A DNA stretch of 64,000 nucleotides, taken from positions 2,732,633 through 2,796,632 of the forward strand of contig OZ242351.1 of assembly GCA_965208675.1 (NCBI GenBank), written 5' to 3'. The translations under genes and the position numbers were made by a program. Shown in pieces: positions 10,829 to 30,491 of this stretch. The first letter of the stretch is position 1. The number at the start of each line of letters is the position of its first letter. This DNA is from Candidatus Poribacteria bacterium (GTDB taxonomy: Bacteria; Poribacteria; WGA-4E; PCPOR2b). Under the pieces are notes generated by a model. It did not search any database. It was not told the origin of the DNA and saw nothing but the letters and a program-made list of their open reading frames with translations.

Positions 10829-10888
10829 TGCGCTCTCGTTCTAGATGAAAAAATGGGTCGATAATCCTTGTCAAATGCGAGTTTCATT

Positions 10889-11665: not shown

Positions 11666-11682
11666 TCAACAAACTCGCGCAA

Positions 11683-13230
11683 TTACGAAGCGAAAAGTTC
11701 CCGGAACAACTTTCTGTTTGAAGAGGAAGCAAAATCGTTGAAAATATTGGAAAATGAGTTTTTAACGGTCTGTTTTTTTTGACTCAACGCCCCGATTAAA
11801 CTGCCTATTGCGAGAATTGTCCTTTTGGACTGCGAATTCGCTATAGGCAGTTCACCAGTAATCGTCTGAAGATATTCGTCCTGAATGCACACATCCTGAA
11901 AATCCCCAAGATTATCTTGCAAATTTTTCAACTGGTTTATTAAAATACTAATTTTTGGATAGGGAAACAGACTGGAAAAGAACTCCATCAAATACCGCAG
12001 TTTTTTGCATTCAATCCTGAGTTGATGCAACAGCTCATCTCCGGTATTCTCAAAGCTCAGGCGTCCAAGTTTAACGACATTCCGGTACCTCCTGTAGATT
12101 CGGTTCCGCGCAAGAAAAATTATTGGAACACCTGCGTTAAGTGCCGGTGAAGTGTTTTTCGACGGTTCGTCAAGAAAGGCTTCCCAATCCTTCAGCATCC
12201 GCGAGAGCCGTTTGGAGTTTAAATTGCCAACAACTTCCTTTAACGCTTCCGATCGTTTCACACGTAAATGGTCAAACAGCGGCTCAATGTCAACTTGAAA
12301 TACATTCGGAAGCATCGCCTTGTAGTTTCTTTCGTTAAGGAGATAAACATCCAAATCCCGCAGCGGATTCGAGAGTTTGCCCAATGCGGCGAACTCCCGC
12401 CTAAACCGGTCGATTGCATCCTCCGGGAACACAGACTTAATCTGGCTTAAAGCGGAACGTGTCCGGCGGATAGCAACGCGAAAATCGTGCAAAAATTCAG
12501 TGTCAAGGTCCGCCTTGATGCCCTCCACATTGCGATTGATGACTTTCAGTAGAAGCCGCAGCACAATTTTAGTCGCCTCATCAGCACGCATATCCGGGTC
12601 GAGTTTTAATTTCAATTTTGTAGAATAATCTCCCGGGTACTGATTTACCGCTCCCAAGATGTTGCGATAGATATCTTCCTCCCCAACTGTTGGAAATCCC
12701 AAATCGTGGAATTGGTTGGCCAACGTTCGAAAGTATGCCGGATATCCTCGAACCTGCTCTAAGGTCAGATGAGTTGACATCGCGGGCGCGTCAGGTTTAA
12801 GCCTGAACGCTTCGTAAACGAAGCGCGCCACTGTTTTTTCGTCGGGGTTCAAAATGCGGTAGGAATTTGAATGGGAGACGATTTCAGCGCGCTTCAAAAG
12901 CGCGCGTACCTTTATAATCGGCGACAGCAGGTCTTTCAATCGGCTGTCAGGAAAATCCCATATGAAGACGGGTTGAGCGCGGATGCGGGCGCGCTCCATC
13001 AACGTGTTTTGAGAAAGGTGATGCAGTACAAAGTGACTTCCAGTTCCGTACAAAGCAAGTGAATTATTGAATAAACGCCAGTCGAAGGTGTCGTAAATTG
13101 TAAAACGCTCTGTGGCGGACTGCTCTTCTTTGGTGGAGTACGATGCATCAGCCGATTCACGAATCAAACGCTCTTGACTATACCCGGCAGGTAGCTTAAA
13201 TTTCAGATAATTATGCAAGTCTGCCTCCAC
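11683..13230 (-). CDS. CHAD domain-containing protein (N-terminal ~220 aa of unknown function)
   Basis: HDFRVAIRRTRSALSQ and CKKLRYLMEFF are typical CHAD helical-motif signatures. Sits 17 bp upstream of the ParA-like gene. Confidence 0.7.
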   Translation of the reverse strand: MEADLHNYLKFKLPAGYSQERLIRESADASYSTKEEQSATERFTIYDTFDWRLFNNSLALYGTGSHFVLHHLSQNTLMERARIRAQPVFIWDFPDSRLKDLLSPIIKVRALLKRAEIVSHSNSYRILNPDEKTVARFVYEAFRLKPDAPAMSTHLTLEQVRGYPAYFRTLANQFHDLGFPTVGEEDIYRNILGAVNQYPGDYSTKLKLKLDPDMRADEATKIVLRLLLKVINRNVEGIKADLDTEFLHDFRVAIRRTRSALSQIKSVFPEDAIDRFRREFAALGKLSNPLRDLDVYLLNERNYKAMLPNVFQVDIEPLFDHLRVKRSEALKEVVGNLNSKRLSRMLKDWEAFLDEPSKNTSPALNAGVPIIFLARNRIYRRYRNVVKLGRLSFENTGDELLHQLRIECKKLRYLMEFFSSLFPYPKISILINQLKNLQDNLGDFQDVCIQDEYLQTITGELPIANSQSKRTILAIGSLIGALSQKKQTVKNSFSNIFNDFASSSNRKLFRELFAS

Positions 13231-13475
13231 AGCGTTGTCTTCGCACCGTCATTGATTTCGCCATCGCATTTCACAAGTTTCATTGTATCAGAACCGCTGT
13301 ATTTCATCAATAAGAATACCGCTGTGTCAGCAGACGCAGCGTTCATTATAGCATGATTGGGATCAGTGTCAATCATATTCAACTGCTTCATCCGTGAGGA
13401 GATAGTGCACCACATTCAGCGTGAGGCATTGGAGTGAAGAAACCCCAAATGCGTATTGTCACGGGTTCAAAATTA

Positions 13476-13504
13476 TTGACACGCATTGCGTCGGGTGGTA
13501 GAAT
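13476..13504 (+). promoter_or_regulatory. sigma-70-type promoter for rarA (TTGACA-17 bp-TAGAAT)
   Basis: TTGACA at 13476-13481, a 17-bp spacer, TAGAAT at 13499-13504, about 75 bp upstream of the rarA start. Confidence 0.5.
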
Positions 13505-13578
13505 GCATCCCGCGGTAGGTTGGGTGATCGGGCGGTCTATCTCAACCTGAACCGCCAGAATTTAGCGGAGGTCATCCA

Positions 13579-14931
13579 GTGAATGAGTCAGGAACCCCCA
13601 CCAATCTGTTCGACTCTCAGCCGACGTCCGGCAAAAGCGCGGGACCTCTGGCGCACCGGGTTCGCCCCAATTCACTCGACGGATTCGTCGGACAAGAGCA
13701 TCTGCTGGACAAGGGACAGCCTCTTCGTCGTGCAATCGAAGGCGACGTGTTGATGTCCTGCATCTTTTGGGGTCCGCCGGGGTGCGGCAAGACTACGCTG
13801 GCGCACATTATCGCCCAGTATTCAAAAGCGCACTTCGAGCCTATCAACGCGAGCACAACAGGCGTTCCGGAATTGCGTAAACGAATCGCCGCTGCTCAAG
13901 AACGCTTAAAAATCCAAAATCAACCTACCATCCTGTTCTTGGACGAAATCCACCGCTTTAACAAAGCGCAGCAGGATTTTCTGCTGTCCTTCGTGGAAAA
14001 CGGCACAATTGTGCTGATTGGTGCGACTACCGAAAACCCTTCCTTTGAGGTGAATACCCCGCTCCTCTCTCGCATGCAGGTTTACCCGTTCCACCCGCTA
14101 GAAACACGCCACATCCAGCAGATAGTGGATACGGCAATCTGCGATATTGAACGGGGACTTGGCAAGTATCGAGTCACACTTTCGGATGCGGCTATGGAAG
14201 CGCTCGTTCGGATTGCGGACGGCGATGTGCGGCTAGCACTTAATGCGTTGGAACTCGCGGTGCAAACGTGCAAGCCCAATTCGCAGCAAATCCGTCACTT
14301 GGATGCGGAGAGCGTCCGCCGCGCCGCACAGAAACGGATGCTGCGCCACGATAAAGCTGGCGATGAACATTACAACCTAATTTCGGCCTTTATCAAGAGT
14401 ATGCGTGCGTCCGATGCAGACGCTGCCATCTATTGGCTGGCGAGGCTCCTTGAAGCCGGAGAGGACGCGCGTTTCATTGCACGGAGAATGGTAATCTTGG
14501 CGTCTGAGGATGTCGGAAACGCCGACCCACAAGCGTTGTTGATTGCGGACGCGGCGGCACGCGCCGTGGAATTTGTCGGGCTTCCGGAGGCGCAACTCAA
14601 TTTGGCTCAGGCTGCCACCTACCTCGCGTGCGCACCGAAAAGTAATGCCTCATATCTGGCTTTACTAGCGGCTCAGAAAGATGTACGCCAAAAATCCGCC
14701 TACCCGGTACCGCTCCACCTGCGGAACGCACCCACGCAACTGATGCGAGAACTCGGGTACGGAAAGGGATACCAGTACGCTCACGATTTCGAAGAACACA
14801 TCGCCGACATGGAATGCCTCCCCGAACCTCTACACGGGCAACGCTACTATAAACCGACGGATATCGGATATGAAGCGGTCATCCGCGAATATCTGGAAAA
14901 AGTTAAAAACAAAATAGGGCGAACTGATTGA
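13579..14931 (+). CDS. rarA: Replication-associated recombination protein A (AAA+ ATPase RarA/MgsA)
   Basis: 450 aa. [11 protein letters not shown] Walker [17 protein letters not shown] Walker B/sensor, C-terminal MgsA helical domain. TGA stop. Confidence 0.9.
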
Positions 14932-14961
14932 GTCTAGCGGAGCGAAGGGCGAGCAAATTTG

Positions 14962-15042
14962 ATCTCACAATAGCGTACTCTCTATACGATAAATTCGCCG
15001 CTCTCCATCCTCTCTTCGCATCTCAAGAACGCACCCAATTTT
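14962..15042 (-). pseudogene. Remnant of the C-terminal KMRK..WRIY module of the ECF-fusion family
   Basis: Minus-strand translation ...LEMRREDGERRIYRIESTLL* resembles family C-termini (VKMRKEDGAWRIYE). Nucleotide similarity to 22640-22690. No upstream ORF. Confidence 0.45.
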
Positions 15043-15903
15043 CAAGTGCGTATCTCATTACGCGCGGTGTGCGTTCGGCCGATCGAGTTTGCGGCCTCAT
15101 TTGGTGTCAAAGTTGCAACCAAAACCTATCTTCTCAGGAGAATTTTCCGAGCGTTTTTGCCCTACATTTTAGTTGACACAGCATCTGAAACTCTGATAGG
15201 ATGTATTCAATTGAATCCGTGCATAAGGTAGGTATTTCTCTGGCGGGCTAAACGCTTGGGTACAACAGCGATGAATCTGCTTGCTTCTATCACAAATAAA
15301 ATCCCCTGTAACCCGTCCCGCAACCGCATTTCCCCGGAGGACAGGATTGATACTCCGACTATTATGGGATTATATTGGTCCGGATTCACCGAGAAACTTC
15401 ATACGCAATTATTTTTTCTTGCCAAGCGTCTTTGAAGAGGCAGGTTAGTTTGCCTCTCTGGAGGCGCTTTTTTGTTTGTGGAGCGTAACGATTTCTATAA
15501 GCCGATTCAATGGCTAAAATAGCAGTTTGCGGGAGCTTGAGTTGATATGCCAATCGGATTGAGGCAATGCTGACACAAGCTGGATCGTAATCCGAAGGCG
15601 AAGCGATTTGTGGCCGCAGGCGAAAACCGAAGAAAGAGCTGTTTCTGGTCGGATTTTCCGCCTTCGGCGGTGTCTTCTTGTGGCTCATTGGCTGTACCCG
15701 GTACCATAAATTAACCATGTTAGCGTGGGGTGGTTCATTTGTCCGCGCTCAAACGAAAACCGCGAAGGATCCCTTTGGGAGGAATGCGCTTAAAGTAAAA
15801 CCAACTCTAGCGATTGAGCTTATAGATTCGTTTTGACTCTTTCTTCATTCTTTAGAGATGAGGTTTTCCAACATGGCAACCATTCAAGAAAGGACAATAT
15901 CTC

Positions 15904-16725
15904 ATGAAAAAGACAGTTGTACGATTGACCTTTTTCTGCGTTGGCTTGGTCTTCGCCGGTTTGGTGTTGACGAGTATCAGTGATGCCGAAATTGACATGA
16001 CAGGCGCGAGGGCTATTTGGCTCTTTGACGAAGGGGAAGGTGATACAACTAGCGATATTTCTGGCAATGATTTTCACGCAACCCTCGCAAATGGTGCGGC
16101 ATGGACGGACGGCAAGTTCGGAGCAGGTGTGAGTTTCGATGGAGCGGATGATTATGTGGAAGCGAATGCCCCAGTCGTTGTCGAAACAGTCGATTTCACA
16201 ATGGGTCTTTGGCTAAATCCAGGCGAGACTCAATCCCAGTGGGCTAATGTCCTCTCCAGTCATGGCAGCGATCCAGGACCTCCGGAAATTTGCCGGGGAA
16301 TGTCCATTGAACAGGTTAGCGACTCCGCAAATCTGTTCTACTTTATCGCGGGTGGCGGGGAAAACGGTTGTTGGCTTGGTCAAGCGGCGCAAACCCAACT
16401 GGCAGCCGGTGTTTGGCAGCATTTCGTCATTGTACGGCAGGGGGCTACATTGACACATTACCTGAACGGCGAGGTATCCGCGGAGGGACGCGCTCAAAGA
16501 GATACACCCTACGCACCTGCCACACTTAATTTCCGCATCGGAAACTGGAGCGTCTTTGAGGGCAGGGGGTACAATGGCACAGTTGACGACGCTTTTATTT
16601 TCGATAGAGCACTGAGCCACGATGAAATTACCAGCCTTATGGACGATGGCTTTGATGTTGAAATCGCCGTTTCCCCGGCAAGGAAAATTTCTGCGGTCTG
16701 GGGAGGGATAAAAACACTATTTTAA
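15904..16725 (+). CDS. Secreted LamG/concanavalin A-like lectin-fold domain protein
   Basis: Signal peptide. LamG_3-like pattern (DGKFGAGVSFDGADDYVE..., FTMGLWLNPGE..., WQHFVIV..., LTHYLNGE, DDAFIFDRALSHDEI). Confidence 0.7.
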   Translation: MKKTVVRLTFFCVGLVFAGLVLTSISDAEIDMTGARAIWLFDEGEGDTTSDISGNDFHATLANGAAWTDGKFGAGVSFDGADDYVEANAPVVVETVDFTMGLWLNPGETQSQWANVLSSHGSDPGPPEICRGMSIEQVSDSANLFYFIAGGGENGCWLGQAAQTQLAAGVWQHFVIVRQGATLTHYLNGEVSAEGRAQRDTPYAPATLNFRIGNWSVFEGRGYNGTVDDAFIFDRALSHDEITSLMDDGFDVEIAVSPARKISAVWGGIKTLF

Positions 16726-17209
16726 TCTGAAATACGTCTTATCCTCGTGCAGAGGCAGGCGTGCCCGTGCTTACGCTATCATGTGGATTGTGATGGCTAG
16801 GAATCCAAGTTCCCGTCTTCGATACGGCTTTGAACCCTTCAGTGGTTTAACCTTCAAATCCATTCTACGTTAAGCACGCAAACGTTGAGTGCCAGCTGAT
16901 ATTCTTGTTCAATCTGAAACCGGATGTAGAATTGCAAGCCCTCTTGTGCGAACTGTAAGCGGCTAAGCTTTGATTAGTACCTAATATAGCAAAGAATAAT
17001 CCGTAATGAGTAATACGTGAGAAGAAGGTTAAATCTTATTGTGTTTACACGTGACGCGTGACTTCATTCTAATGAGAAATGGATTCCTCGATTAAAAACC
17101 CTGGACGAATCGAGATTGTGGCGTTAAATTGTCGGTCGGGATTCTAACACGGAGATTTCCTTGTCGATTTCGAAAACTCGACCGGCAAATTTTATAAGGA
17201 GATTGTCTT

Positions 17210-18040
17210 ATGAAGAGCACATCTGTCAGATTAACCGTCTTTTGTATCGGTCTGATCATCATCAGTCTGGTGTTAACAGGTAAAACCGACGCCCAACTTG
17301 ACATTGAAGGCGCTGTAGCGATATGGCTTTTTGACGAAGGTAGAGGCGATAAAGTAGCCGATGCCTCCGGCAATGGTAATGATGGAGAGTTTGTAAATAA
17401 TCCAGAATGGGTCGAAGGAAAATTTGGCGACGCTTTGGATTTCGATGGAATTGTTGACTATGTACAGATAAATGTCCCAGTCGTTGTGGAAACCGATGAC
17501 TTCACAATGGGCTGTTGGGTGAATCCAGGAAAAGTCCAAAAACAGTGGGCAAATATTCTCTCTAGCCATGGCGGCGATCCAGGTCCTCCGATAAATTGTG
17601 AGGGAATGTCCTTTGAACAGAATAGCGACACTCCAAATCGGTTCTACTTTATCGGGGGAGGTGCGCCGCGGCAATGTTGGCTTGGCCAAGCGGCGCAAAC
17701 TCAACTGAAGAGCGGTGTTTGGCAGCATTTCGTCGTTGTACGCAAGGATGGTAAACTGACACATTATCTGGACGGTGAGGTGTCCGCGGAGGTAGGCCTT
17801 CCACAAGACCTCGCGGTTGCCACAGATAGGTTTCGCATCGCTAACTGGAGTCGCCACGGGAACCGGGAATTCCAGGGGAAGGTTGACGAAGCCATGGTTT
17901 TCAGTCGAGCACTAAGCCACGATGAAATTACCACGGCCATGAATGAAGGTATTGCCGAGATATTGCCAGTTGCCCCAGTGGACAAAGCGCTCACTACGAC
18001 GTGGGGGACATTAAAATGGATGAATCGGAGAAGAGAATAA
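17210..18040 (+). CDS. Secreted LamG/concanavalin A-like domain protein (tandem paralog of 15904-16725)
   Basis: About 55% aa identity to the upstream paralog and the same motif order. Signal peptide. Confidence 0.7.
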   Translation: MKSTSVRLTVFCIGLIIISLVLTGKTDAQLDIEGAVAIWLFDEGRGDKVADASGNGNDGEFVNNPEWVEGKFGDALDFDGIVDYVQINVPVVVETDDFTMGCWVNPGKVQKQWANILSSHGGDPGPPINCEGMSFEQNSDTPNRFYFIGGGAPRQCWLGQAAQTQLKSGVWQHFVVVRKDGKLTHYLDGEVSAEVGLPQDLAVATDRFRIANWSRHGNREFQGKVDEAMVFSRALSHDEITTAMNEGIAEILPVAPVDKALTTTWGTLKWMNRRRE

Positions 18041-18549
18041 CGACCGGTTCATCTACTACCAAGTGGGCGATTTGGTAGAAGTCTTGTCGACACTTGAGAC
18101 AAGCGTTGTTTAATTCAAGGATTGAATCAAACAGTAAGGTCCCAAGGTATTCTAAGTGTTTCATCGTCTGAAACTAAGGTCCTGCCTCACTATTATTCAG
18201 TTTTCTTACCCTGCGCACTAGAGCAACTTCCGCTCCTTGCTGCTGTGGTGCGTCCATCCAACCTGTAATTATTCGGCGTTTTTGACCGCACAAGCCCGTT
18301 GAATTAGTGTAAAATTCTGTCAAAAGAAATTCCAGAATTTACTGTTCTATTCCCACACTGATACCGTCTAGCACATCGTTGGAAGAACAGTGATGCAGCA
18401 ACGCCCCAAGAAAACTCCACGACCAAATGCGATCGAAAATTCCATTGAAACACGATTCCCTCCGGTGGAATCTCGAAAGCCGTTCTGTTTCTGACCCAAT
18501 CTCGATTCTCTAATAGTAGGACTCTTTTCGTTTTCTGCAAAAGGCAATC

Positions 18550-20514
18550 ATGCCCGTAATTAGCAGACCGCCGCTCAGAAGATTTTTCAGTTGTAAGGTT
18601 TCGGCTCTGGCTTTGGTTATCCTGCTGGGGCTTAGCCGGGCGGCGCCAAGCCAGGCACCTGAAGGGTTCGAATTCGCCGATGTCGTGGAGAAATACCAGA
18701 AGGCTGTGGATGAATATCCGGCGTCGATAGAGGCGTATATGAATCTAGGCTTCGCGTATCTAGCGGTGGATGCGATGGAGCAAGCCAAGGAGATGTTCCG
18801 CGAGGTGCTCCGATTGGACGCGGAGTCTCCTGAAGGACACTATTGGCTAGGGCGAATCGACAATCTCCAGGGCAATTTTGAGAAATCAATTTTTTCTTTT
18901 CAGAGTGCTGTCCGTTTGCTTCCAAACTGGAGCGACGCGTATTCGGAGTTGGGATTGTGCTATTTTCGGACATACAAATATGATGAGGCTGAAGCCGCTT
19001 TCAAGAAGGCGCTTTCGCTGATGGCAATGTCGAAAACCCATCGCCCTCGATTTGCACCACCGCCCATCTTCGAAAAAGAAAACCAAGAATGGATAAATAA
19101 AGTGGCACCGATGCTAAAAAGCGGTATTGTTTATTATCTTAGCCTTATCGCATTCGAACGTCGACTTTTTGACGAGACTGCCGAATACTGCCGTCAAGTT
19201 ATCCGGATAGAACCCCAATTTGCGGAGGCGTATTTTCAGCTTGGGATGGTTCATGTTCAAAAAAAAGAGTGGGAAGCGGCAGAGAAAGCATTCGGCCAGG
19301 CAATTCACATTAGACCTCAAATGGGGCACGCCCACTACCAGTTGGGGTTATTGTATTTCAGACAAGGCAAACAGGCAGAAGCCGCCAACGCGATAGCGCA
19401 ATCTCAACAACTTAACAATTCTTTGGAACAACTCCGGAAGCAGCAATTATCCCTGATGTTGAACACAGACAAAGCCCCCGTCCTATCAAACCTCGGTTGG
19501 CAATATTTAAATGAGAAGAATTACGAAGCGGCTGTTCGGGAGTACAAAAAAGCACTCTGGCACAGCCCAAATCTCGCGGAAGCACACAACGGAATCGGTT
19601 ATGCATATACGATGCAAGGCCAACTTGAGAAAGCAATCCAAGCTCAACAGATGGCGATCCGATTGAAACCTCAGATGGCTGAAGCATACGCGGGCATGGG
19701 ACTCATTCGGCTAAAGCGTGCAGAAGTTTCTCAAAGCGAAGGAGATTATGAATTAGCCCTTTCGGCGTATCGCAAGGCAACAGAATTGAAGCCGGAATTC
19801 CCGGAAGCCCTCCTGAACCTTGGCAATATTGCCAATAAACTTTCTCGTCTTGAGGAAGCTGAAAAGGCTTATATAACATTGTTAACACTTCGGTCGAATC
19901 ACGCGCATACCCAACTTGGCGAAATTCCGATAAGCCGGATTCATCTGAATCTGGGCAAAATTTATTTGCGTCAAGAGAAATTCCCACAGGCAAATCGGCA
20001 TTATCAGGAAGCACTGAAGCAAAATCCGGATCTCGCCGAAGCGTTTTATGACTTGGGATTCATAGCATTTAAAGATGGCCGGGCAGATGACGCCGTCGAC
20101 AACTATAAGACTGCGCTAAAAATCCAACCCGATATGGCTGAAGCGCATTACTTCCTTGGAAAAATATACGTTGAACAGAATCAGTTTGAGCCGGCGGAGA
20201 AAGCATTTCAGAGGGTTATCGAGATTCAGCCCTCCTTCCACAGAGCCTATGAACGGTTAGCACACCTATACGGACAGACGGGCAGGTACACAAACAAGGC
20301 TGTGGCACTCGCCGAGAAAGCCGTAGAACTTCAACCCAATTCGGCGGCTTACCTCAATACCCTGTCATGGTTGTATTACATCAACAAAGATTATGTGCAG
20401 GCGGAAAGCGCCATAAAAAAAGCACTCGTGTTGCAACCCGATAATCGGCTCTACCAACGAGGACTCAAAGCCGTTCAACAAGCCACGGGCGTTGATGGAT
20501 CGGCGAGGAATTGA
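18550..20514 (+). CDS. Secreted tetratricopeptide (TPR) repeat protein
   Basis: 654 aa. Signal peptide. More than 12 TPR-like 34-aa repeats (AEAYFQLGMVHVQKKEWEAAEKAF..., AEAHNGIGYAYTMQGQLEKAIQ...). Confidence 0.85.
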   Translation: MPVISRPPLRRFFSCKVSALALVILLGLSRAAPSQAPEGFEFADVVEKYQKAVDEYPASIEAYMNLGFAYLAVDAMEQAKEMFREVLRLDAESPEGHYWLGRIDNLQGNFEKSIFSFQSAVRLLPNWSDAYSELGLCYFRTYKYDEAEAAFKKALSLMAMSKTHRPRFAPPPIFEKENQEWINKVAPMLKSGIVYYLSLIAFERRLFDETAEYCRQVIRIEPQFAEAYFQLGMVHVQKKEWEAAEKAFGQAIHIRPQMGHAHYQLGLLYFRQGKQAEAANAIAQSQQLNNSLEQLRKQQLSLMLNTDKAPVLSNLGWQYLNEKNYEAAVREYKKALWHSPNLAEAHNGIGYAYTMQGQLEKAIQAQQMAIRLKPQMAEAYAGMGLIRLKRAEVSQSEGDYELALSAYRKATELKPEFPEALLNLGNIANKLSRLEEAEKAYITLLTLRSNHAHTQLGEIPISRIHLNLGKIYLRQEKFPQANRHYQEALKQNPDLAEAFYDLGFIAFKDGRADDAVDNYKTALKIQPDMAEAHYFLGKIYVEQNQFEPAEKAFQRVIEIQPSFHRAYERLAHLYGQTGRYTNKAVALAEKAVELQPNSAAYLNTLSWLYYINKDYVQAESAIKKALVLQPDNRLYQRGLKAVQQATGVDGSARN

Positions 20515-22289
20515 GTGAGGGAATGGGGAAAGCGAAGGGGACTCGGAAGTTAATCCGTTCAGGATTCATATTCCCCGCATTCGGTTTTCTAGTCTTCTGG
20601 CTTTCTGGCTTGCCGGTGAACGCCCAATTCCACTTCACCGAAGTCCCCGCTCAAGTTACGGCTGCGGCATCCGTGTTCCGCGGGACCGGCATCCACTTTC
20701 AGCACTCAGACGGCCGCAGCGGTGAGCGGTATTTTGTTGAGACGCTTGGCTCCGGCGCCGCGTGGTTTGATTATGACGAAGATGGAGATTTGGACATCTA
20801 TTTCGTCAACGGCGCGGATTTGCCGAAGATGCGCTCGGATGTTCCGCCGACTAACGCACTTTACCGCAATAACGGCGACGGCACCTTCACCGATGTGACA
20901 TCTGATGCTGGCGTGGGCGATACGGGATATGGTTTTGGTTGCTGCGTAGGCGATTACGATAACGACGGTTACTCAGACCTTTATGTCACGAATTTCGGCC
21001 CAAATCTTCTGTATCACAATAACGGCGACGGCACCTTCACCGACATGACGCATGAAGCAGGTGTTGGAGATGAGCGGTGGGGAGCTTCCGCTGCTTTCGC
21101 CGATTATGACAACGATGGCGACATAGATTTATTTGTCGCCAACTATGTGACGTATCAATTAGAGAATAATCAGGATTGCTATGAGAGAGGCATCCGCGCC
21201 TATTGTCCGCCGGCAGATTTCGCGGGGGCGCTGGATGTGCTTTATCGAAACGACGGCAATGGCACGTTTACAGACATCACACAGAATGCGGGATTCATGA
21301 ACTCAAACGGCAAGGGGCTGGGCGTCGTTTGGGGGGACTATGACAACGACGGCTATGCTGACCTTTCCGTGGCGAATGATACGACGCCTGACACACTTTA
21401 TTGGAACAAGGGCGATGGCACTTTTATGGAGGTGGGGACTTTCGTTGGGGTTGCCTTTAGCGGCAGAGGCACTGCCTTAAGCGGGATGGGCATCAGTTTC
21501 GGCGATTATGACAACGACGGCTGGTTAGATCGGGTTGTGACGAACTTCCAGGATGAACCAAACACTCTCCATCACAACGACGGGATTGGGGAAAATACAG
21601 GGCTTCCCCCTGTTTTCGCCGATACGACTTTTTCAGCCGGCCTTGGAAGGCCAAGCCTTCCGTATCTCGCCTGGGGTGTGGATTTCGTAGATCTCGACAA
21701 CGATGGGCATCTGGACATCTTCGCGGCGAATGGGCATGTACACGACAAGGCCGAAGAAATTAACAGAGATGTCAATCAGAGCAGTACGTACGCCCAGCGA
21801 AACCAGGTCTTCAGAAATCGAGGCGATGGCGGTTTCTATGAGATTTCCGAGGGCATCGGCACCGGATTGCACATAAAGAAAGTAAGCCGCGGCGCCGCAT
21901 TCGGCGATTATGACAACGATGGCGACGTTGACATCTTGATTACCAATTCCAATCAGGCGCCGGACCTCATTCGGAACGACAGCGTAAATTCAAACCACTG
22001 GCTGATGCTGGAGACCATCGGCACGCAGAGTAATCGGGACGGGATTGGTGCCCGTGTGAAAGTGACCGCAGGAGGATTCTCACAAATCCGGGAAGTAAAA
22101 AGCGGCTCCAGTTACCTTTGTCAGAGCGATATGCGGTTACATTTTGGACTTGGCGAGGCATCAGAAGCCGATTCGGTGGAGATTCGATGGCCCAGCGGGT
22201 TGGTGGAGCGTTTTGAAGGCGTCAAAGCCAATCAGTTTGTGAAGGTGATAGAGGGGGAAGGACAGCTCCTGTCACAACCGTCTGAATGA
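20511..22289 (+). CDS. ASPIC/UnbV-domain protein with FG-GAP/VCBS repeats (CRTAC1-like)
   Basis: Repeated YRNNGDGTFTDVT / GDYDNDGxxDL FG-GAP-like units. C-terminal UnbV_ASPIC pattern (RDGIGARVKVTAGG..QIREVKSGSSYLCQSD..LHFGLG). TTG start overlaps the TPR gene stop by 4 bp. Confidence 0.85.
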   Translation: MSEGMGKAKGTRKLIRSGFIFPAFGFLVFWLSGLPVNAQFHFTEVPAQVTAAASVFRGTGIHFQHSDGRSGERYFVETLGSGAAWFDYDEDGDLDIYFVNGADLPKMRSDVPPTNALYRNNGDGTFTDVTSDAGVGDTGYGFGCCVGDYDNDGYSDLYVTNFGPNLLYHNNGDGTFTDMTHEAGVGDERWGASAAFADYDNDGDIDLFVANYVTYQLENNQDCYERGIRAYCPPADFAGALDVLYRNDGNGTFTDITQNAGFMNSNGKGLGVVWGDYDNDGYADLSVANDTTPDTLYWNKGDGTFMEVGTFVGVAFSGRGTALSGMGISFGDYDNDGWLDRVVTNFQDEPNTLHHNDGIGENTGLPPVFADTTFSAGLGRPSLPYLAWGVDFVDLDNDGHLDIFAANGHVHDKAEEINRDVNQSSTYAQRNQVFRNRGDGGFYEISEGIGTGLHIKKVSRGAAFGDYDNDGDVDILITNSNQAPDLIRNDSVNSNHWLMLETIGTQSNRDGIGARVKVTAGGFSQIREVKSGSSYLCQSDMRLHFGLGEASEADSVEIRWPSGLVERFEGVKANQFVKVIEGEGQLLSQPSE

Positions 22290-22339
22290 ACTTTGGAAAA
22301 TCCGCTTTACCCGGTGCGGCCCCATCTTCGAAACGCACT

Positions 22340-22590
22340 GGCGCAACAGATACGGGCACTCGGTTTCGGGAAATGGTGCCAGTACATTCACGATTTTGAA
22401 GAACACATCGCCTCCATGGAATATCTTCCCGACGCTCTTCACAGATAACGCTCCTAAGAGCCGGTCGACATCGTACATGAAGCGGTCATCCGTGAATATC
22501 TGGAAAAAGTGACAAAACAAAAAAGGGCGAATCAATTGAACCATGTTCGTCTGATGAAGTCTAGCGGAGCGAAGTCAGAATTAGTCTAAT
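22340..22590 (+). pseudogene. Degenerate duplicate of the rarA 3' end (last ~55 codons plus 3' flank)
   Basis: About 75-80% nucleotide identity to 14760-14950. Translates to ...[22 protein letters not shown] against rarA ...[23 protein letters not shown]. The shared downstream motif agtctagcggagcgaag occurs at both sites. Confidence 0.6.
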
Positions 22591-22593
22591 GCA

Positions 22594-24078
22594 TCAGTAT
22601 ATTACCCTTTCCTCCCTAAATAATTCGCCCATCATTATATTACCCTTCCCATCATAAATTCGCCACTCCCCATCCACTTTTCGCATTTTAAGAACGAATC
22701 CAGTGTTCCTGGGGCTATCCGACGTTGGCGCTTCTAATCGGAAATGAAATTCATCGCCGACATATTCACTACTCACAATCTCTATCTGACTATAACCCTC
22801 CCGCATCTTCGACTGTCCTTCCGGAGTTTGAATTGCATCCAGTCCCTTCAGTATAGACTGAATCACAGATTCTCTCGTCTTTTCTACTAACGCTTCTGGC
22901 ACCCCTTCTGGAAAATTATCTTCAATTGCATTTAAGGTTTCATTTACAAATTCTTCTGGAAACTCCCCTCCGAGGAAACGTAAACTAGTTTCAATATGAT
23001 CTCTGTAAGCTCCTGTCACAAAGGGGAGAGTTTCCTCTAAATCCACATTCTTAAGTGCTTCCACATAAGCGTTCATCACCTCTTCGGCGGATAAGATTGT
23101 GCCTTCTGATGCAACGGATGAATCGGTTTCGCCTGATTCGGAATCCTGATTAGATGCCCCGTCCGTTGCTAGTTGCGACGCCTGCGTTTCCGATTGTTCG
23201 TCGGCACCTTCTAGATGATCGAAGAAGTCCTCAATTTGCAGCATCTCTTCTGCGGAGATTTGCGGCTTATTTTCGGGTAAAGGTGCGCTGACCGCGCCTT
23301 TACGAGCGGTGTCCGTTTGAGCGACCGAGGTTTCAGACTCAGTTGGCGTCGAAGCTACAATCTCAACCGATGGAGACGAATCTTCTTTCGACGATATGAA
23401 CTGGCGCGTTCCGATGAAGGCGAGTACAATGATGGCTACCGCCCCGGCGGTGATTTTGGGTACTGTTCCAACTTTCATGACCGTTAATCCTCCTGAGTAG
23501 ATTTGTTTGAGTGTGGGCATCGGAGAAACAAACACACCAGTAAGCAGATGACCCAATCGTTTGGCGAGTTTCTGCTTGGCGCGCGAGAGCCGAAACGAAA
23601 TCGCCTTGTATGACAACCCATGCGTCCGAATCAGTTCGTCGTAGCCTGCGCCTTCAAGATAGTACGAGCGAGCGATTTCCCTATCTTTTTGCGGCAACGT
23701 TTCAATCGCGCGGCGAATCAGTTCCCTCTGTTCGCGGCGTATCAACTGTTCGTCGGGTGCGTCCGGGGTTAGGAGTGTGTGTGCGCTCGCTTCATCAATG
23801 GAAACAGTATTGACACGCTGTTTTCGCAACCAATCTCGTGCACTGTTTCGGGCAATCTCTGCCAGCCAGTATTTGAATTTTTCCCGATCCTCATACTGCA
23901 CCAAGCCACGGTAGGCGTTGAGAAAGGTGTCTTGCACAATCTCTTCGGCATCGTTCGGATTGTTTACAAATCCGATTACAACCGCATAAACAAAGGCGTA
24001 ATGCACCCGCATTAACTCCGTGAATGCACCTTCGTCCCCCGCTTGAACGCGGTAAATCAGATCTTTAGTGTTAGCCAC
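22594..24078 (-). CDS. ECF sigma factor fused to a TM segment and a C-terminal extracytoplasmic KMRK..WRIY module (subfamily A)
   Basis: GTG start with GGAGG RBS. Sigma region 2 (AEEIVQDTFLNAYRGL), region 4 HTH (LPQKDREIARSYYLEGAGYDELIRTHGLSYKAISFRLSRAKQKL), TM helix (KITAGAVAIIVLAFIGT), acidic S/P/E linker, PQISAEEMLQIEDFF motif, then EYVGDEFHFRL...KMRKVDGEWRIY. Has a 19-aa extension past the family C-terminus. Confidence 0.8.
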   Translation of the reverse strand: MANTKDLIYRVQAGDEGAFTELMRVHYAFVYAVVIGFVNNPNDAEEIVQDTFLNAYRGLVQYEDREKFKYWLAEIARNSARDWLRKQRVNTVSIDEASAHTLLTPDAPDEQLIRREQRELIRRAIETLPQKDREIARSYYLEGAGYDELIRTHGLSYKAISFRLSRAKQKLAKRLGHLLTGVFVSPMPTLKQIYSGGLTVMKVGTVPKITAGAVAIIVLAFIGTRQFISSKEDSSPSVEIVASTPTESETSVAQTDTARKGAVSAPLPENKPQISAEEMLQIEDFFDHLEGADEQSETQASQLATDGASNQDSESGETDSSVASEGTILSAEEVMNAYVEALKNVDLEETLPFVTGAYRDHIETSLRFLGGEFPEEFVNETLNAIEDNFPEGVPEALVEKTRESVIQSILKGLDAIQTPEGQSKMREGYSQIEIVSSEYVGDEFHFRLEAPTSDSPRNTGFVLKMRKVDGEWRIYDGKGNIMMGELFREERVIY

Positions 24079-24160
24079 TGTTCTTCATTCCTCCTTATAC
24101 CCCTTAATCAAACATAACGACGTTCTGCGATTTTTTCTAGCACTTTTTTTGAAGATGTAA

Positions 24161-24204
24161 CTGTCTGAATCAGGATTTACCGGATTAAAGGATTCCCAGG
24201 ATAT
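24161..24204 (-). promoter_or_regulatory. Conserved promoter core (phased AATCC x3 ... GATTCAGACAGTT) upstream of the 22594-24078 paralog
   Basis: Minus strand TATCCTGGGAATCCTTTAATCCGGTAAATCCTGATTCAGACAG. Followed by the conserved leader AAAAAGTGCTAGAAAAAATCGCAGAACG (24121-24150). Confidence 0.5.
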
Positions 24205-24219
24205 CAGATTAGTCGCGGG

Positions 24220-24257
24220 TTGAAAATAAAAAAGGCGAATGGGTTGTACCATTCGCC
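24220..24257 (-). terminator. Intrinsic terminator (9-bp stem GGCGAATGG/CCATTCGCC + T-tract) after the 24296-25765 gene
   Basis: Minus strand reads GGCGAATGGtacaacCCATTCGCC followed by TTTTTTATTTTC. Confidence 0.6.
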
Positions 24258-24295
24258 ACGTGAAGTCTTTGGGAATAGAGTTGGGAGTTTGTTGA

Positions 24296-25765
24296 TTATT
24301 CCCTTGCATAAATTATCCACACTCCATCAACATTCCGCATCTTAACGAGGCGCATTATGCTTTCTGGTGGCTTTGGAAACCCTGGAGGAAGCTCTCCCAA
24401 TCCCGGTAGTTTTGGCATCGGCACGCTCAATCGGAAGTGAAATTCATCACCGACATATTCGCTCCTCACAATCTCCATCTCCCCATACATTTCCTGTGCC
24501 ATTTGCCGTATCTTCGCCTGCACTTTTGAATTCTGGTTAATCTCCAACATCATTTGCTGCAGACTATCCATCTGTTTTTCTGACATCGCTTCTTTTTCTT
24601 TCGACATCTCGTCGGAAATACGATCTGCTACGTCTTCTGAAAACCCATCACTGAAGATGTGCAAAGTAGTTTCAATGTGATTTCTGGCGGTCCCATCTAC
24701 GTACGGGAGCAATGCCTCAAAGTCAAAAGTCCTATATGCATCGAGATAAGTATCCATCAACTCTTCGGCGGCAAAACTAGCGCTTTCGGCTTCAAAAGAT
24801 GAATCAGTGACATTGCCTTTTTGAAAATCTTGATTGGTTGTCTCGTGCGTTGCTAGTTGTGAGATAGCGGCCTCCGATTGCGCGTCTGACTCATCAAGGT
24901 GAGCGAAAAAGTTTTCGATTTGCTGCATCTCCTCTGCAGAGATTTGCGGTTTGTCTTCAGGCACAGACGCGACGACTGCGCTTTTACGAGCGGCGTCCGT
25001 TTGAGCGACCGAGGTTTCAGGCTCAGTTGGCGTTGAAGCAACAATCTCTTCCGATGGCGACGAATCTTCTTTCGACGATAGGAACTGGCGCGTTCCGATG
25101 AAGGCGAGTACAATGATGGCTACGGCCCCGGCGGTGATTTTGGGTACTGTTCCAACTTTCATGACCGTTAATCCTCCTGAATAGATTTGTTTGAGTGTGG
25201 TTATCGGAGAAACGAATACACCAGAAAGCAGATGACCCAACCGCTTGGCGAGTTTCTGTTTGGCGCGTGAGAGTCGAAACGAAATTGCCTTGTATGACAA
25301 CCCGTGCGTCCGAATCAGTTCGTCGTAGCTTGCGCCTTCAAGATAGTACGAACGCGCGATGTCCCTATCTTTTTGCGGCAAGGTTTCCATCGCGCGGCGA
25401 ATCAGTTCTCTCTGTTCGCGGCGTATCAACTCTTCGTCAGGTGAATCCGCGGTTTGAAGCGTACCTTCGCTCACCTCGTTGATGGATACGGCGTCGATTC
25501 GTTGTTGTTCTCGCAACCAGTTTAAGGCTCGATTTCGCGCAATTTTTGCGAGCCAGCCTTTGAATCTTTTCGTATCCTCAAGTTGTGGCAAACCGCGGTA
25601 AGCGTTAAGGAAGATTTCTTGGACAACTTCCTCGGCGTCGTTGGGATTGTTTACGATTCCGATTACAATCGCATAAACGAAGGCATAATACGCCTGCATT
25701 AACTCAGTGAACGCACCTTCGTCCCATGTTTGGGCGCGAGAAATGAGGGCGTTGTCGTTATCCAC
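24296..25765 (-). CDS. ECF sigma-TM-periplasmic module fusion protein (subfamily A paralog)
   Basis: Same architecture and motifs. GTG start. C-terminus ...VKMRNVDGVWIIYARE. The sigma-domain region is nearly identical in DNA to the neighbouring paralogs. Confidence 0.8.
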   Translation of the reverse strand: MDNDNALISRAQTWDEGAFTELMQAYYAFVYAIVIGIVNNPNDAEEVVQEIFLNAYRGLPQLEDTKRFKGWLAKIARNRALNWLREQQRIDAVSINEVSEGTLQTADSPDEELIRREQRELIRRAMETLPQKDRDIARSYYLEGASYDELIRTHGLSYKAISFRLSRAKQKLAKRLGHLLSGVFVSPITTLKQIYSGGLTVMKVGTVPKITAGAVAIIVLAFIGTRQFLSSKEDSSPSEEIVASTPTEPETSVAQTDAARKSAVVASVPEDKPQISAEEMQQIENFFAHLDESDAQSEAAISQLATHETTNQDFQKGNVTDSSFEAESASFAAEELMDTYLDAYRTFDFEALLPYVDGTARNHIETTLHIFSDGFSEDVADRISDEMSKEKEAMSEKQMDSLQQMMLEINQNSKVQAKIRQMAQEMYGEMEIVRSEYVGDEFHFRLSVPMPKLPGLGELPPGFPKPPESIMRLVKMRNVDGVWIIYARE

Positions 25766-25839
25766 AGTTTTTCGTTCCTCCGTTGCATTATATTAAGACA
25801 CTGTTCTGCGATTTTTTCTAGCACTTTTTTGTGATGTAA

Positions 25840-25883
25840 CTGTCTGACTCAGGATTTACCGGATTAAAGGATTCTCAGGATAT
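25840..25883 (-). promoter_or_regulatory. Conserved promoter core upstream of the 24296-25765 paralog
   Basis: TATCCTGAGAATCCTTTAATCCGGTAAATCCTGAGTCAGACAG plus the conserved leader. Confidence 0.5.
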
Positions 25884-25899
25884 CAGATTTTTCGCGGGC

Positions 25900-25937
25900 A
25901 GAAAATAAAAAAAGGCGAATGGGTTGAACCATTCGCC
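25900..25937 (-). terminator. Intrinsic terminator (same hairpin family) after the 25987-28728 gene
   Basis: GGCGAATGGttcaacCCATTCGCC + TTTTTTTATTTTC on the minus strand. Confidence 0.6.
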
Positions 25938-25986
25938 TTGTGAAATCTTGGGGAATACGGTTGTGGGTTTGTTAAGAGTTCCGCTT

Positions 25987-28728
25987 TTAATACAAATAAT
26001 TAACTTCGTAAATTTGCCATGCACCGTTCTCTTTTCGCATCTTAACAGACGTACCCGGCATCTCTAGGTGCTCGGGCATCTCCGGCAGCTCTATCCCCTG
26101 TAATTCGGGCATCTCCGATATGTCCGGTATCTCTATTTTCGGCATGGCTATTTTCAATTGGAAGTGGAATTCATCGTCGACATATTTACTGGTCACAATC
26201 TCAACCTGACTGAACATTGATCGCACCATCGGATTCTGCATCGTATCGTTTAACATCTGAATCATACCGTCCGCCATTTCTTCTGATAACCCAATGTCAT
26301 TATAATATATATCAACAAGCTCATCCGGAAGCTCACCGTTAAACATGCCTATAAGACCCGTTACCACTGGTCGGGCAGTGCCTGTCACATACGGCAGCAT
26401 CGTCTCAAGTTCAAGCTTTCTATACGCCTCTATATAGGCATTCATCAACTCTTCGGCGGATGCATTCGCGTCGGTTGTGCTGGACTCGGTTTCAGATTCA
26501 GACGGTAGTTGGGAGGTGTCCACTTCCGGTTCTTCGATTTGACCGAGGGAGTCCTTGCCAACGATGACGGTGGCGCGCTTGTTTCGAGGGAATACACTCG
26601 CCGCCAGGTGCTGCATGTCTGCATCGGTAACGCGCTGGATGGCATCACGCAATTCGTTGCCATCCAGTTTCAGTTGATACCGACGACCGGTGCTGAAAGC
26701 TAAACCGTAAAGGTTTTGCGCCCACATGGCATCCGGCACCTCAACTGTGCCCAACATTGCCATTGAGTTAAGCGTTCGCTGTTTGTCCTCCGGTGTAAGT
26801 TTTGTCGCCAACGCCGTGTTTAGGCGTTCGTCGAGTTGAATCAGTGCAATATGGTCGTCTGTGTCAGATTGTAGGTCGGTTTGGAGCACAAGTGTGGTAT
26901 CATCCTCCAGCGGTGTGAAGTACACACGCGGTGTTTTACCCGGCTGAAAGACGAACTGTGCGCTTGCCCACAAACGCGAGACAACTATCAGGAACGGCGC
27001 GTACTCCTTACTCCCGGGTCGGGGTGCAGCATATCCAATCGCTGCGACGCCGGTCGTATCGTCGTTCACAGGTTCTGCAGTAAGCAACCGCAGCCCGCCG
27101 GTCAATGCTATAGACTTGCGCGGTTTAATAGGGGGCGACACGCTGGGCGAAATGTGACCGAAGTTTTGGTGAATCAACTGCCGCGCTTCGGCAACGTCAA
27201 ACCCGCCTGCGATGGCAAGAATGGCGTTGTTCGGTTTGTAGTAATTCTGCCAAAATTGCTGGAGCTCGTCGAGCGTCATAGTCTCGATGTGCTCGGGCGC
27301 GACGCCGACGCGTCCGCCTTCGAGAATCGTGTGCAAGTGAGCTCGAACACTGTTTAAACCGACCAGCGACGGGACGCCACTATACATGTTCCTCAACTCC
27401 GCCATCACGCGAGGCACCTCACGATTCAGATCGGCTTGGGTAATGCGTAGGTCATTCATGCGGGTAGCCGCGTCCTTCAATTCGGACGCGAATTGTTTTG
27501 CTTCGACGACCCCGGCAAAAACGGTGTAGTCAAATCCCGTGTGCGAGTTCCAGCCTGCAACATAGCGTGCCTGAAGCTGTATGGCGCCGCGCGCTGGGGA
27601 GTCGCCGGCTGCAGCGGTATAATACAGGTGTTCAAGCAGGTGTGCTCTGCCGGACTTTCCGATCGGGTCGTGGTCTCCGCCCAAATTGAACAGCACTACA
27701 ACCGCCACTTGGCTTGACGTGGGAACAGGGCGTAGAATGACTGTCAGCCCATTTTCCAGTTTGTACGGCGCCCGTATCTCGGTCTTTGAAATTTTAACCT
27801 CGGCGACGGAGTTGATCGGACTCGGTTGCTCGGGCGAATTACCGACAATCCCCGTGCCGTGTTCACCAAGAACCGTTGGCGGTTTGGCCCCCTCGGCCAC
27901 GAGTTCCACCGGAATCTCTGCAAACATTGTCATCTGGATTTCGCTGGGAAGCGGTGAACTGGCCAGATCGCCGGGCGTAGCAACTGGTCGGAGAAATTGA
28001 TTGAAAAGCATAAAGGTAAGTACTATCCCGACGGTCGCTGAACCGATGAATGGAAGCAACGGCTTCGTTGAAATCGGTTGCACTTTGGTTGACTTAATGG
28101 CTTCGACGATTCGGAACGTAAAGCCTGACTGTAATTTTTTCTCTGCAAATGTGGTGTCTATCATCGAAATCAACTCCTCCTTCAGTTTGGTTCTGGCTCG
28201 CATCAACCGTTGGTTCACGGTGTTGACAGAAGTCCCCAAAAACCGCGCAATCTCCTTGCTACTCAGACCGCCAAGATAGTAGAGCGTCAACGTCTGTCGA
28301 TAGATTTCCGGCAATTGATCAATCGCCTCACGGATGGATTCGGCTGCGGCTTCGCTTCGATAGGCATCAATTGACGGTGTGTCCAAGAGCGCCGTGTCTT
28401 GGTCCTCGATGTAGTCTCCATCTGGACGGCGTAATCGGGATGTGAGAAAATTTGTGCACGAATTAACCGTAATTGAGAACAGCCACGCTAAGAAGTTATC
28501 CCGTCGCTTGAGGGTAGGAAGTTTCTGATAGGCTTTAATAAAGACTTCTTGGGTGATGTCCTCAGCATCGTGGAAGTTTCTAAGCTTTGTGTAAGCTAGG
28601 GCATAGACGCTCGACTTGTATTTATCAACGAGCAAGCCAAACGCCGCCGATTCTCCATTAAGGCATTTTCCGATGATGTATCCATCTTCTGTGTACACGG
28701 TTCTATTCCTCTCACCAAATGGCTTCAT
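25987..28728 (-). CDS. ECF sigma-TM fusion with periplasmic M16 (pitrilysin-like, HxxEH) peptidase domain and C-terminal KMRK..WRIY module (subfamily B)
   Basis: 913 aa. ECF regions 2 and 4 (DAEDITQEVFIKAYQKL; LSSKEIARFLGTSVNTVNQRLMRARTKL), TM (GSATVGIVLTFMLF), GKSGRAHLLEHLYYT inverted zinc motif, C-terminus ...SKYVDDEFHFQLK...VKMRKENGAWQIYEVNYLY. Confidence 0.8.
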   Translation of the reverse strand: MKPFGERNRTVYTEDGYIIGKCLNGESAAFGLLVDKYKSSVYALAYTKLRNFHDAEDITQEVFIKAYQKLPTLKRRDNFLAWLFSITVNSCTNFLTSRLRRPDGDYIEDQDTALLDTPSIDAYRSEAAAESIREAIDQLPEIYRQTLTLYYLGGLSSKEIARFLGTSVNTVNQRLMRARTKLKEELISMIDTTFAEKKLQSGFTFRIVEAIKSTKVQPISTKPLLPFIGSATVGIVLTFMLFNQFLRPVATPGDLASSPLPSEIQMTMFAEIPVELVAEGAKPPTVLGEHGTGIVGNSPEQPSPINSVAEVKISKTEIRAPYKLENGLTVILRPVPTSSQVAVVVLFNLGGDHDPIGKSGRAHLLEHLYYTAAAGDSPARGAIQLQARYVAGWNSHTGFDYTVFAGVVEAKQFASELKDAATRMNDLRITQADLNREVPRVMAELRNMYSGVPSLVGLNSVRAHLHTILEGGRVGVAPEHIETMTLDELQQFWQNYYKPNNAILAIAGGFDVAEARQLIHQNFGHISPSVSPPIKPRKSIALTGGLRLLTAEPVNDDTTGVAAIGYAAPRPGSKEYAPFLIVVSRLWASAQFVFQPGKTPRVYFTPLEDDTTLVLQTDLQSDTDDHIALIQLDERLNTALATKLTPEDKQRTLNSMAMLGTVEVPDAMWAQNLYGLAFSTGRRYQLKLDGNELRDAIQRVTDADMQHLAASVFPRNKRATVIVGKDSLGQIEEPEVDTSQLPSESETESSTTDANASAEELMNAYIEAYRKLELETMLPYVTGTARPVVTGLIGMFNGELPDELVDIYYNDIGLSEEMADGMIQMLNDTMQNPMVRSMFSQVEIVTSKYVDDEFHFQLKIAMPKIEIPDISEMPELQGIELPEMPEHLEMPGTSVKMRKENGAWQIYEVNYLY

Positions 28729-28822
28729 TTAGTATGACAATGCAAAAGACCGAAATATTACACGGGCAGACAATTTTTCGGTTGAAAGAGAGGATAAGTG
28801 ACAGGGTGTATCTGTTACCGAA

Positions 28823-28866
28823 CTGTCTGACTCAGGATTTACCGGATTAAAGGATTCTCAGGATAA
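28823..28866 (-). promoter_or_regulatory. Conserved promoter core upstream of the 25987-28728 (M16-containing) paralog
   Basis: TTATCCTGAGAATCCTTTAATCCGGTAAATCCTGAGTCAGACAG. The leader differs from the subfamily-A leader. Confidence 0.5.
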
Positions 28867-28882
28867 CAAATTTTTCGCGGGT

Positions 28883-28919
28883 TGAAAATAAAAAAGGCGA
28901 ATGGGTTGAACCATCCGCC
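28883..28919 (-). terminator. Intrinsic terminator (same hairpin family, 1 mismatch) after the 28966-30354 gene
   Basis: GGCGGATGGttcaacCCATTCGCC + TTTTTTATTTTC on the minus strand. Confidence 0.55.
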
Positions 28920-30474: not shown

Positions 30475-30491
30475 CAAAATACACGCGGGTT

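Follow-up and report, generated by a model that had tools for sequence, protein, structure and literature searches.

Scars at the join points of duplications in bacterial chromosomes consist of direct repeats in which each copy completes one gene, with the dead halves of the genes left in the middle; most of the tandem duplications described so far are unstable and young. Direct repeats also surround segments integrated by a single crossover of a circle (Campbell-type integration), where the repeat is the shared homology and each flanking gene is completed once, and segments inserted by transposons or insertion sequences (IS), whose target-site duplications are far shorter than ~0.4-1.3 kb. 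Here we describe a related arrangement in 64,000 nucleotides of a sponge symbiont, a Candidatus Poribacteria bacterium (assembly GCA_965208675.1, contig OZ242351.1, positions 2,732,633 to 2,796,632 of the forward strand; this whole stretch is referred to as the window, and its first letter is position 1). The junction between rarA, which encodes replication-associated recombination protein A (RarA, also MgsA), and the 3' end of a convergent gene for an extracytoplasmic-function (ECF) type sigma factor, fam1, occurs twice in the window, and a 7.2-kb block of four plus-strand genes (two LamG genes, a TPR gene and an FG-GAP/ASPIC-UnbV gene, here ASPIC) lies exactly between the two copies. On balance, and with modest confidence, we take this to be an ancient duplication scar at a convergent rarA/fam1 junction, with the block between its copies.

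The locus resembles join-point scars in its direct repeats, in the completion of one gene by each copy and in the dead halves in the middle, and recombination between the copies could collapse it to a single junction of the type found in the relative L093. It differs from them in that the copies are separated by the four-gene block and not joined in a simple head-to-tail manner, and in that the scar is old (~23% diverged). Campbell-type integration would give the same repeat-insert-repeat order with each flanking gene completed once, but no circular donor, integrase or plasmid genes were found and the block is compositionally native; it is a formal possibility for the origin of the arrangement only. 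The likeness to a target-site duplication ends with the direct repeats around an inserted segment, as the repeat here comprises hundreds of bases, not 2-15 bp, and neither inverted repeats nor a transposase were found. The junction itself recalls shared bidirectional intrinsic terminators, since in L093 a hairpin stands between the convergent genes and the same hairpin ends the genes of the sigma-factor array that begins with fam1. Unlike in usual shared terminators, this hairpin overlaps the coding end of rarA (last ~10 codons and stop), and both window copies have since lost it.

The two junction copies, at site A next to functional rarA and at site B next to fam1, comprise the following elements.
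13579-14931, plus strand: rarA, intact, 450 aa, identified by its Pfam domains
14690-15054: junction copy A, with the functional rarA tail (14690-14931), the degraded shared terminator and flank (~14905-14964) and a dead family-gene tail
14965-15054, minus strand: 3' relic of a family gene, 29 codons and stop, DTHLKIGCVLEMRREDGERRIYRIESTLL followed by the stop, with further stop codons upstream
22297-22719: junction copy B, with the rarA relic, the degraded terminator and flank, and the 3' end of fam1 up to ~22719
22297-22539, plus strand: rarA pseudogene relic, codons ~371-450, tblastn E 7.7e-21, two in-frame TAA stops
22514-22593, minus strand: degraded family-type intrinsic terminator with the flank GTCTAGCGGAGCGAAG, downstream of fam1, homologous to the array terminator (z 13.6)
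22594-24078, minus strand: fam1, intact ECF-type sigma factor, 494 aa, Sigma70_r2 1.7e-15 and Sigma70_r4_2 1.1e-6 (Pfam)

An initial annotation of the same DNA had noted that the end of rarA recurs together with its flank and a family-gene tail. This was borne out, with a repeat somewhat longer than first stated: 14690-15054 recurs at 22297-22719 at ~78% DNA identity, with all sub-parts in the same order and orientation. Self-comparison of the window recovered both copies by repeat search (family D19, 14701-14919 against 22308-22526, 77% identity across 219 nt without gaps), by blastn (14691-14931 against 22297-22539, 78.2% over 243 nt, E 4.7e-53) and by MAFFT. The repeated sequence is not of low complexity and the MAFFT alignment of both regions is clean, which rules out short low-complexity matches as an explanation. 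At the protein level, RarA residues 375-445 matched 22308-22520 with 63% identity (tblastn, E 7.7e-21), and no further piece of rarA was found by tblastn in the 64-kb window. The similarity continues beyond rarA through the flank GTCTAGCGGAGCGAAG, identical at 17/17 positions (14931-14947 against 22558-22574, blastn), into the family-gene tails (14989-15043 against 22654-22708, 81.8% identity, E 8.6e-12, blastn). Two indels separate the copies in the MAFFT alignment. Copy A lacks 19 nt that make up half of the terminator hairpin, and the fam1 tail of copy B carries a 39-nt tandem duplication (22594-22680, at the fam1 3' end), which adds ~13 codons (..GEWRIYDGKGNIMMGELFREERVIY) and is common to the L093 ortholog but present neither in the site-A relic nor in the family-gene fragment of L091. 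With two directly oriented, similar copies in the window and a single-copy version in a relative, L093, this is a segmental duplication.

Each copy completes a different gene. The rarA product carries MgsA_C (1e-69), AAA_assoc_2 (7e-28) and AAA (8e-20) in one intact open reading frame (ORF), and the family gene at 22594, called intact from the start, is indeed a 494-aa ORF (22594-24078). The minus-strand family-gene remnant at site A, first given as ~27 codons, was likewise confirmed. It matches fam1 residues 454-475 with 54% identity (tblastn) and is nearest to the site-B fam1 tail and to the tail of the L091 fragment (51/66 each), the tails of the other window paralogs being less similar.

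For comparison, closer relatives (L081-L091 and L093) were gathered by protein searches and context look-ups. Relatives from GTDB with RarA 63-78% identical showed no synteny around rarA, and L084-L086 (RarA 83% identical), with unrelated neighbours on both sides, were used as outgroup only. The rarA homologs are 96% identical in L089 and 85-89% identical in L081, L087, L091 and L093. The informative arrangements are these, where S is the non-coding leader of the block and LamGa an additional LamG gene.
L093: circular 4.92-Mb genome; rarA and a 494-aa fam1 ortholog convergent, 52 bp apart; no block
L089: 96% DNA identity to window 10527-22276; window arrangement including the site-A relic; differs right after ASPIC; no rarA relic
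L090: 91.5% DNA identity; contig begins inside LamG1; LamG1 to ASPIC in the same order; post-ASPIC structure as in L089
L087: RarA 89%; rarA, short flank, block; site-A family fragment gone
L088: RarA 89%; shorter contig that ends after LamG1; LamG1 follows rarA at the same spacing
L091: 86% DNA identity in the block; rarA, LamGa, family fragment (residues 162-478), S (from the equivalent of window 15114), block
L081-L083: RarA 88%; rarA, LamGa, truncated family gene straight into PhyH-DLH; block and most of the array missing

The uninterrupted junction of L093 carries most weight. After turning its rarA to the plus strand, L093 4417-9948 aligns with window 9395-14931 (82.9%), and L093 9708-11748 aligns in one piece with window 22297-24346 (83.0%), through fam1. 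One and the same stretch, L093 9708-9948 (reverse complement), aligns with both 14691-14931 and 22297-22539, so that the single L093 junction corresponds to both window copies. The proposal that rarA once had a family gene as its direct neighbour is thus supported by synteny, with rarA and the fam1 ortholog of L093 converging without a block between them. That neighbour had been thought either displaced or destroyed. As the terminator and 3' part of fam1 are 87.1% identical to those of the rarA-adjacent gene of L093 over 1015 nt, fam1 itself is the original neighbour of rarA; displacement therefore stands and destruction does not, since fam1 survives intact.

In L093, rarA and the family gene are separated by a single perfect hairpin (GGCGAATGG-GTTGAA-CCATTCGCC) with an A-run and a T-run alongside, and this family-type hairpin holds the TGA stop of rarA in its loop (L093 11538-11560). 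Throughout the clade, the last ~10 RarA codons (KVKNK.GR.D) and the stop are encoded within the family-gene terminator (window 14902-14931); outgroup RarA proteins end otherwise (..EKIKKISEE). Correspondingly, the 3' end of rarA shows homology with the array terminator in the window, L087, L091 and L081 (z 8-15) but not in the outgroups L084 and L001 (z below 2). Because the L093 junction aligns to both copies and the terminator homology of the rarA end is confined to the clade, the convergent rarA-terminator-family junction is the older state, from which both window copies descend. The terminator hairpin was found only in the array. Folding energies are -1.7 kcal/mol at site A and -4.5 kcal/mol at site B, against -15.7 kcal/mol (z -4.45) for the canonical copy at 24234-24257; this and the copy at 25912-25939 (minus strand) still qualify as intrinsic terminators, those at sites A and B no longer do. 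The hairpin is lost in both junction copies, in copy A through the 19-nt deletion.

The block-side remnants are of different length among relatives. L091 keeps 317 codons of the family gene at site A (residues 162-478), alignable to window 23551; L089 has the short relic of the window, and an internal deletion of ~840 bp shortened the fragment in both the window and L089. The two dead halves complement one another, and either end of the block has one of them next to it: the L091 family fragment, from residue ~162, lies against S, and the rarA relic of the window against the ASPIC flank, starting 8 bases past the ASPIC stop codon. A single event can explain both.

The rarA relic has decayed neutrally and for long. 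It holds codons ~371-450 only and carries replacements at residues that are invariant in functional copies. Its differences from window rarA are distributed over the codon positions as 13/14/25 (of 71 each), compared to ~5/4/24 in pairs of functional rarA genes at similar third-position distance; such a surplus at the first two positions is expected of a sequence that has decayed neutrally from the split onward. Third-position divergence equals that between subclades. A tree of full-length rarA has three subclades ~15% apart, (window, L089), (L087, L088) and (L093, (L081, L091)). Trees built from the 243-nt tail place the relic within the clade (99.4% bootstrap) yet near its base; the functional tails of window, L089, L087 and L088 cluster without it (82%), and at positions where window and L089 have a derived base in common it keeps the ancestral one. 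All three rarA subclades contain the block, which also follows rarA in L087, L089 and L091. With the relic near the clade base and the block in every subclade, duplication and block arrival are both about as old as the clade (subclades ~15% diverged).

The data show that the junction is duplicated, that a relative has it uninterrupted, that the rarA relic is old and neutrally decayed, and that the block is native in composition. On this basis we propose the following course. At the outset, rarA (plus strand) and fam1 (minus strand) would have faced each other across one shared intrinsic terminator, with the rarA stop codon in the hairpin loop. A ~1.3-kb segment with rarA codon ~371 at one end, family-gene residue ~162 at the other and the terminator in between would then have been duplicated, and the LamG-LamG-TPR-ASPIC block with its own promoter would have come to lie between the copies. 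This could have happened in one duplicative insertion, by integration of a circle carrying the segment or by a replication template switch, or in two steps, with a short tandem duplication first and the block inserted into its non-functional middle afterwards; that is, the block would have arrived in the same event or in the dead middle, two routes that we consider about equally likely. Copy A would have completed rarA and copy B fam1, leaving the remaining halves free to decay to what would be the present 29-codon family tail (14965-15054) and 243-nt rarA pseudogene (22297-22539). Later deletions probably trimmed both relics.

Several observations weigh against this course. After ASPIC, no rarA relic was found in any of the four block-bearing relatives for which sequence was recovered (L087, L089, L090, L091), using sensitive searches in L087 and standard tblastn and blastn in the other three. 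A post-ASPIC flank of ~65 bp is common to L087, L089 and L090, of which the window keeps ~20 bp. Given the absence of the relic in relatives and the loss of most of this flank, the present ASPIC/relic joint is probably not original and additional deletions must be assumed. L093 is nested inside the block-bearing clade, so that its uninterrupted junction may be a precise reversion by recombination between the copies in place of the ancestral state. No mechanism signature (microhomology, att-like sites) was found at the block ends. Finally, fam1 has a mosaic make-up: its residues ~313-494 share 85-96% identity with the first gene of L093 and 86-97% with the third gene of L090, residues 1-138 are 93-99% identical to the array-edge genes of L089 (gene 1) and L090 (gene 2), and the nearest relative switches around residues 200-300, as would fit a recombination boundary inside fam1.

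Some of this would also fit a different history, which we regard as possible but clearly less probable. There, the block would already have stood downstream of rarA and a first family gene, and the family gene at the array edge would later have received a copy of the junction with rarA tail, terminator and family 3' part. This pasting would have been a homologous event between paralogs, engaged at one end only, such as ectopic gene conversion, break-induced copying or the homology-facilitated illegitimate recombination of imported DNA. Its tract would have run from the family gene via the terminator into rarA and ended in an illegitimate joint just after ASPIC; the site-A gene would have been truncated separately. 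The likeness to homology-facilitated illegitimate recombination and ectopic conversion is that one end lies within a homologous family gene, at the mosaic boundary of fam1, and that the other, a few bases past the stop of ASPIC, is an illegitimate joint. Apart from this mosaicism and the missing relic in the four relatives, it is favoured by L089, the closest relative (96% on the left), and L090, which share a different array edge without the relic, and by the many truncated and mosaic paralogs in the array. Relatives are colinear with the window only up to the ASPIC end (22276-22294), the L089 alignment stopping at 22276; here (window ~22276-22294, L089 11754), window-L089 identity falls from 96% to 89-92% on the array side, which suggests a homologous-recombination boundary and a separate history of the array and also speaks for pasting. 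However, at least two independent events would be needed to produce complementary dead halves at both block ends, and the uninterrupted L093 junction requires an extra deletion here too. The relic, ~23% diverged and with ancestral states, is not a recent copy of window rarA, so the donor must already have been an old relic. Unlike in a typical case of such recombination, the pasted rarA piece would have been decayed beforehand; the relic could be moved in this way, and its origin would be shifted elsewhere and not explained. Pasting would thus alter the route and not the nature of the event, as the unit must first have been copied from a rarA/family junction in either case.

The ancient-scar reading leaves the source of the block to be considered, the features of which are as follows.
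15055-15903, plus strand: non-coding leader S, colinear from 15114 with L091 4786-5720 and from 15137 with L087
15173-15202, plus strand: predicted sigma-70-like promoter in S (TTGACA-18-TAGGAT, TG-extended; promoter scan), motif conserved in L087
15904-16725, plus strand: LamG1 (Laminin_G_3, Pfam 2.5e-22), orthologs in L087, L088, L089, L090 and L091
17210-18040, plus strand: LamG2 (Laminin_G_3, Pfam 3.6e-23), 59% identical to LamG1, syntenic in relatives
18550-20514, plus strand: TPR-repeat protein (Pfam TPR_1 4e-77 and related families), syntenic in relatives
20511-22289, plus strand: ASPIC, an FG-GAP/ASPIC-UnbV (CRTAC1-like) protein and final gene of the block (Pfam FG-GAP_3 2e-52, UnbV_ASPIC 4e-25)

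The ASPIC stop is shifted 5 codons downstream relative to L087, with TCA in the window where L087 has TGA (22272-22289); the L089 protein ends at the same point as that of L087. Behind ASPIC, at the place that the rarA relic occupies in the window, L087 14400-14900 contains what we take to be the decayed N-terminus of an ISL3-family transposase, a candidate from the translated sequence alone.

The block had been suspected to be an insertion or rearrangement. Its exact position between the junction copies agrees with this, but nothing marks it as foreign or recent. Comparison with its surroundings gave no foreign signal: its GC content (0.490) is close to that of the whole window (0.497), and in tetranucleotide correlation with the remaining window sequence it ranks at the 28th percentile among equal-sized segments, so its composition is native. 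It is accordingly very unlikely to be a mobile element or genomic island (transposon or integrative element) with a target-site duplication, although direct repeats surround several genes and the block is present or absent among close relatives. The block ends yielded no terminal inverted repeats, transposase, integrase, tRNA or Rfam match (Pfam on small ORFs; repeat, tRNA and Rfam searches), nor any other Pfam domain in the non-coding ends, including the ORFs of S. The ~0.4-1.3 kb duplication exceeds transposon target duplications by orders of magnitude, its repeat measuring several hundred bp, and for an integrative island both integrase and tRNA are lacking and the composition is typical.

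A little less probable still is that the relic was kept for a function, for instance as a 3' untranslated region or terminator spacer of fam1, as a small ORF or as a regulatory RNA. In favour of this, it has been retained roughly since the clade radiated, and a 90-aa antisense ORF runs across it (22272-22544). Against this stand substitutions at all codon positions, in-frame stops, a degraded hairpin, the lack of a Pfam or Rfam match, and its absence after ASPIC in the four block-bearing relatives with recovered sequence, one of them 96% identical on the left. The lost hairpin, the absence of matches in Pfam and Rfam, and the missing relic in L089 give no indication of a function, and both relics are probably without one. 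A gapped pattern of ASPIC end and rarA relic was also used to scan JGI metagenomes; the only match, L092 (contig Ga0058704_10241884, 1 kb), had no real homology and proved to be a chance match in the alignment.

A recent origin of the relic, through duplication of this genome's own rarA 3' end within the lineage, has a negligible probability, although two copies 7.6 kb apart in one genome might suggest it: the copies are 76-78% identical compared to 96% for the closest relative L089, the relic carries ancestral bases, its third-position divergence is at the subclade level, and it joined window rarA in only 43/500 bootstrap replicates.

Two further structures at the same junction concern relatives. 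In L081-L083, the joint to PhyH-DLH corresponds to window 39.5-41.5 kb, and L081 seems to have undergone a separate deletion, with a truncated family copy on either side of it. LamGa (L091 2812-3800, L081 11353-12330), placed between rarA and the family fragment, shares 71% identity with LamG2 and has terminator-like hairpin copies on both sides, which suggests another small insertion whose flanks were duplicated.

The array itself holds ~10 family paralogs (full, truncated or interrupted) on the minus strand (22594-46604). Sigma70_r2 and Sigma70_r4_2 were detected by Pfam in 22594-24078, 24296-25765, 25987-28728, 29317-30354, 37137-38639 and 45131-46564. In fam1 and its paralogs, the sigma factor is joined to a hydrophobic segment and a C-terminal extension of ~300 aa, which has no Pfam match; the conserved C-terminal end of the family reads YVGDEFHF...KMRK..G.W.IY. 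Two copies (25987-28728, 32682-34895) contain an inserted part of an M16 peptidase. The copy at 28969-30354 is damaged, aligning to fam1 over its whole length, yet its ORF ends at 29317; fragments comprise a detached N-terminal piece (34936-35160) and C-terminal pieces (36434-36883, 39001-39864). A WD40 beta-propeller gene with a clear 126-nt periodicity lies within the array (30558-32441), and L089 13393-13500 holds a remnant of its 3' end. Literature on Poribacteria and sigma factors offered nothing relevant to this array.

Between array genes, ~140-nt conserved spacers recur at 24146-24288, 25825-25967, 28808-28950, 30416-30558, 35240-35382 and 43416-43558, with elements that make up repeat families D6 and D10. 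Each holds the terminator of the upstream gene and, ~70 nt before the next start codon, the conserved motif AACTGTCTGAATCAGGATTTACCGGATTAAAGGATTCTCAGGATA (plus strand), which may be a putative shared promoter, possibly autoregulated. The terminator part is a strong minus-strand intrinsic terminator (GGCGAATGG-loop-CCATTCGCC and T-run, -15.7 kcal/mol). A rarA remnant in every spacer was considered and rejected, as only the terminator part (~60 nt) is common and tblastn finds no more of rarA.

For annotation, 22297-22539 should be entered as a fragment of a rarA pseudogene and 14965-15054 as one of a family gene; at neither place should a new gene or a regulatory RNA be called. It is a minor curiosity that in this clade the RarA C-terminus and stop codon are encoded inside the terminator hairpin of a convergent neighbour. 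Altogether, the locus is an ordinary though well-resolved rearrangement scar, which opens no long-standing question. The region is plastic in Poribacteria: a four-gene block with eukaryote-like domains is present or absent, the array of sigma-factor fusions is mosaic, and the DNA after ASPIC differs in each lineage examined. A wider, though doubtful, idea is that a eukaryote-like surface or adhesion cassette (LamG, TPR, CRTAC1/ASPIC-like) is recurrently gained and lost in sponge-symbiont populations through the repeat-block-repeat layout. Were this the case, homology-driven integration would bring the cassette in at the rarA/sigma-gene junction, and recombination between the flanking copies would remove it precisely; L093 would represent a clean excision and L081 a second, independent loss.

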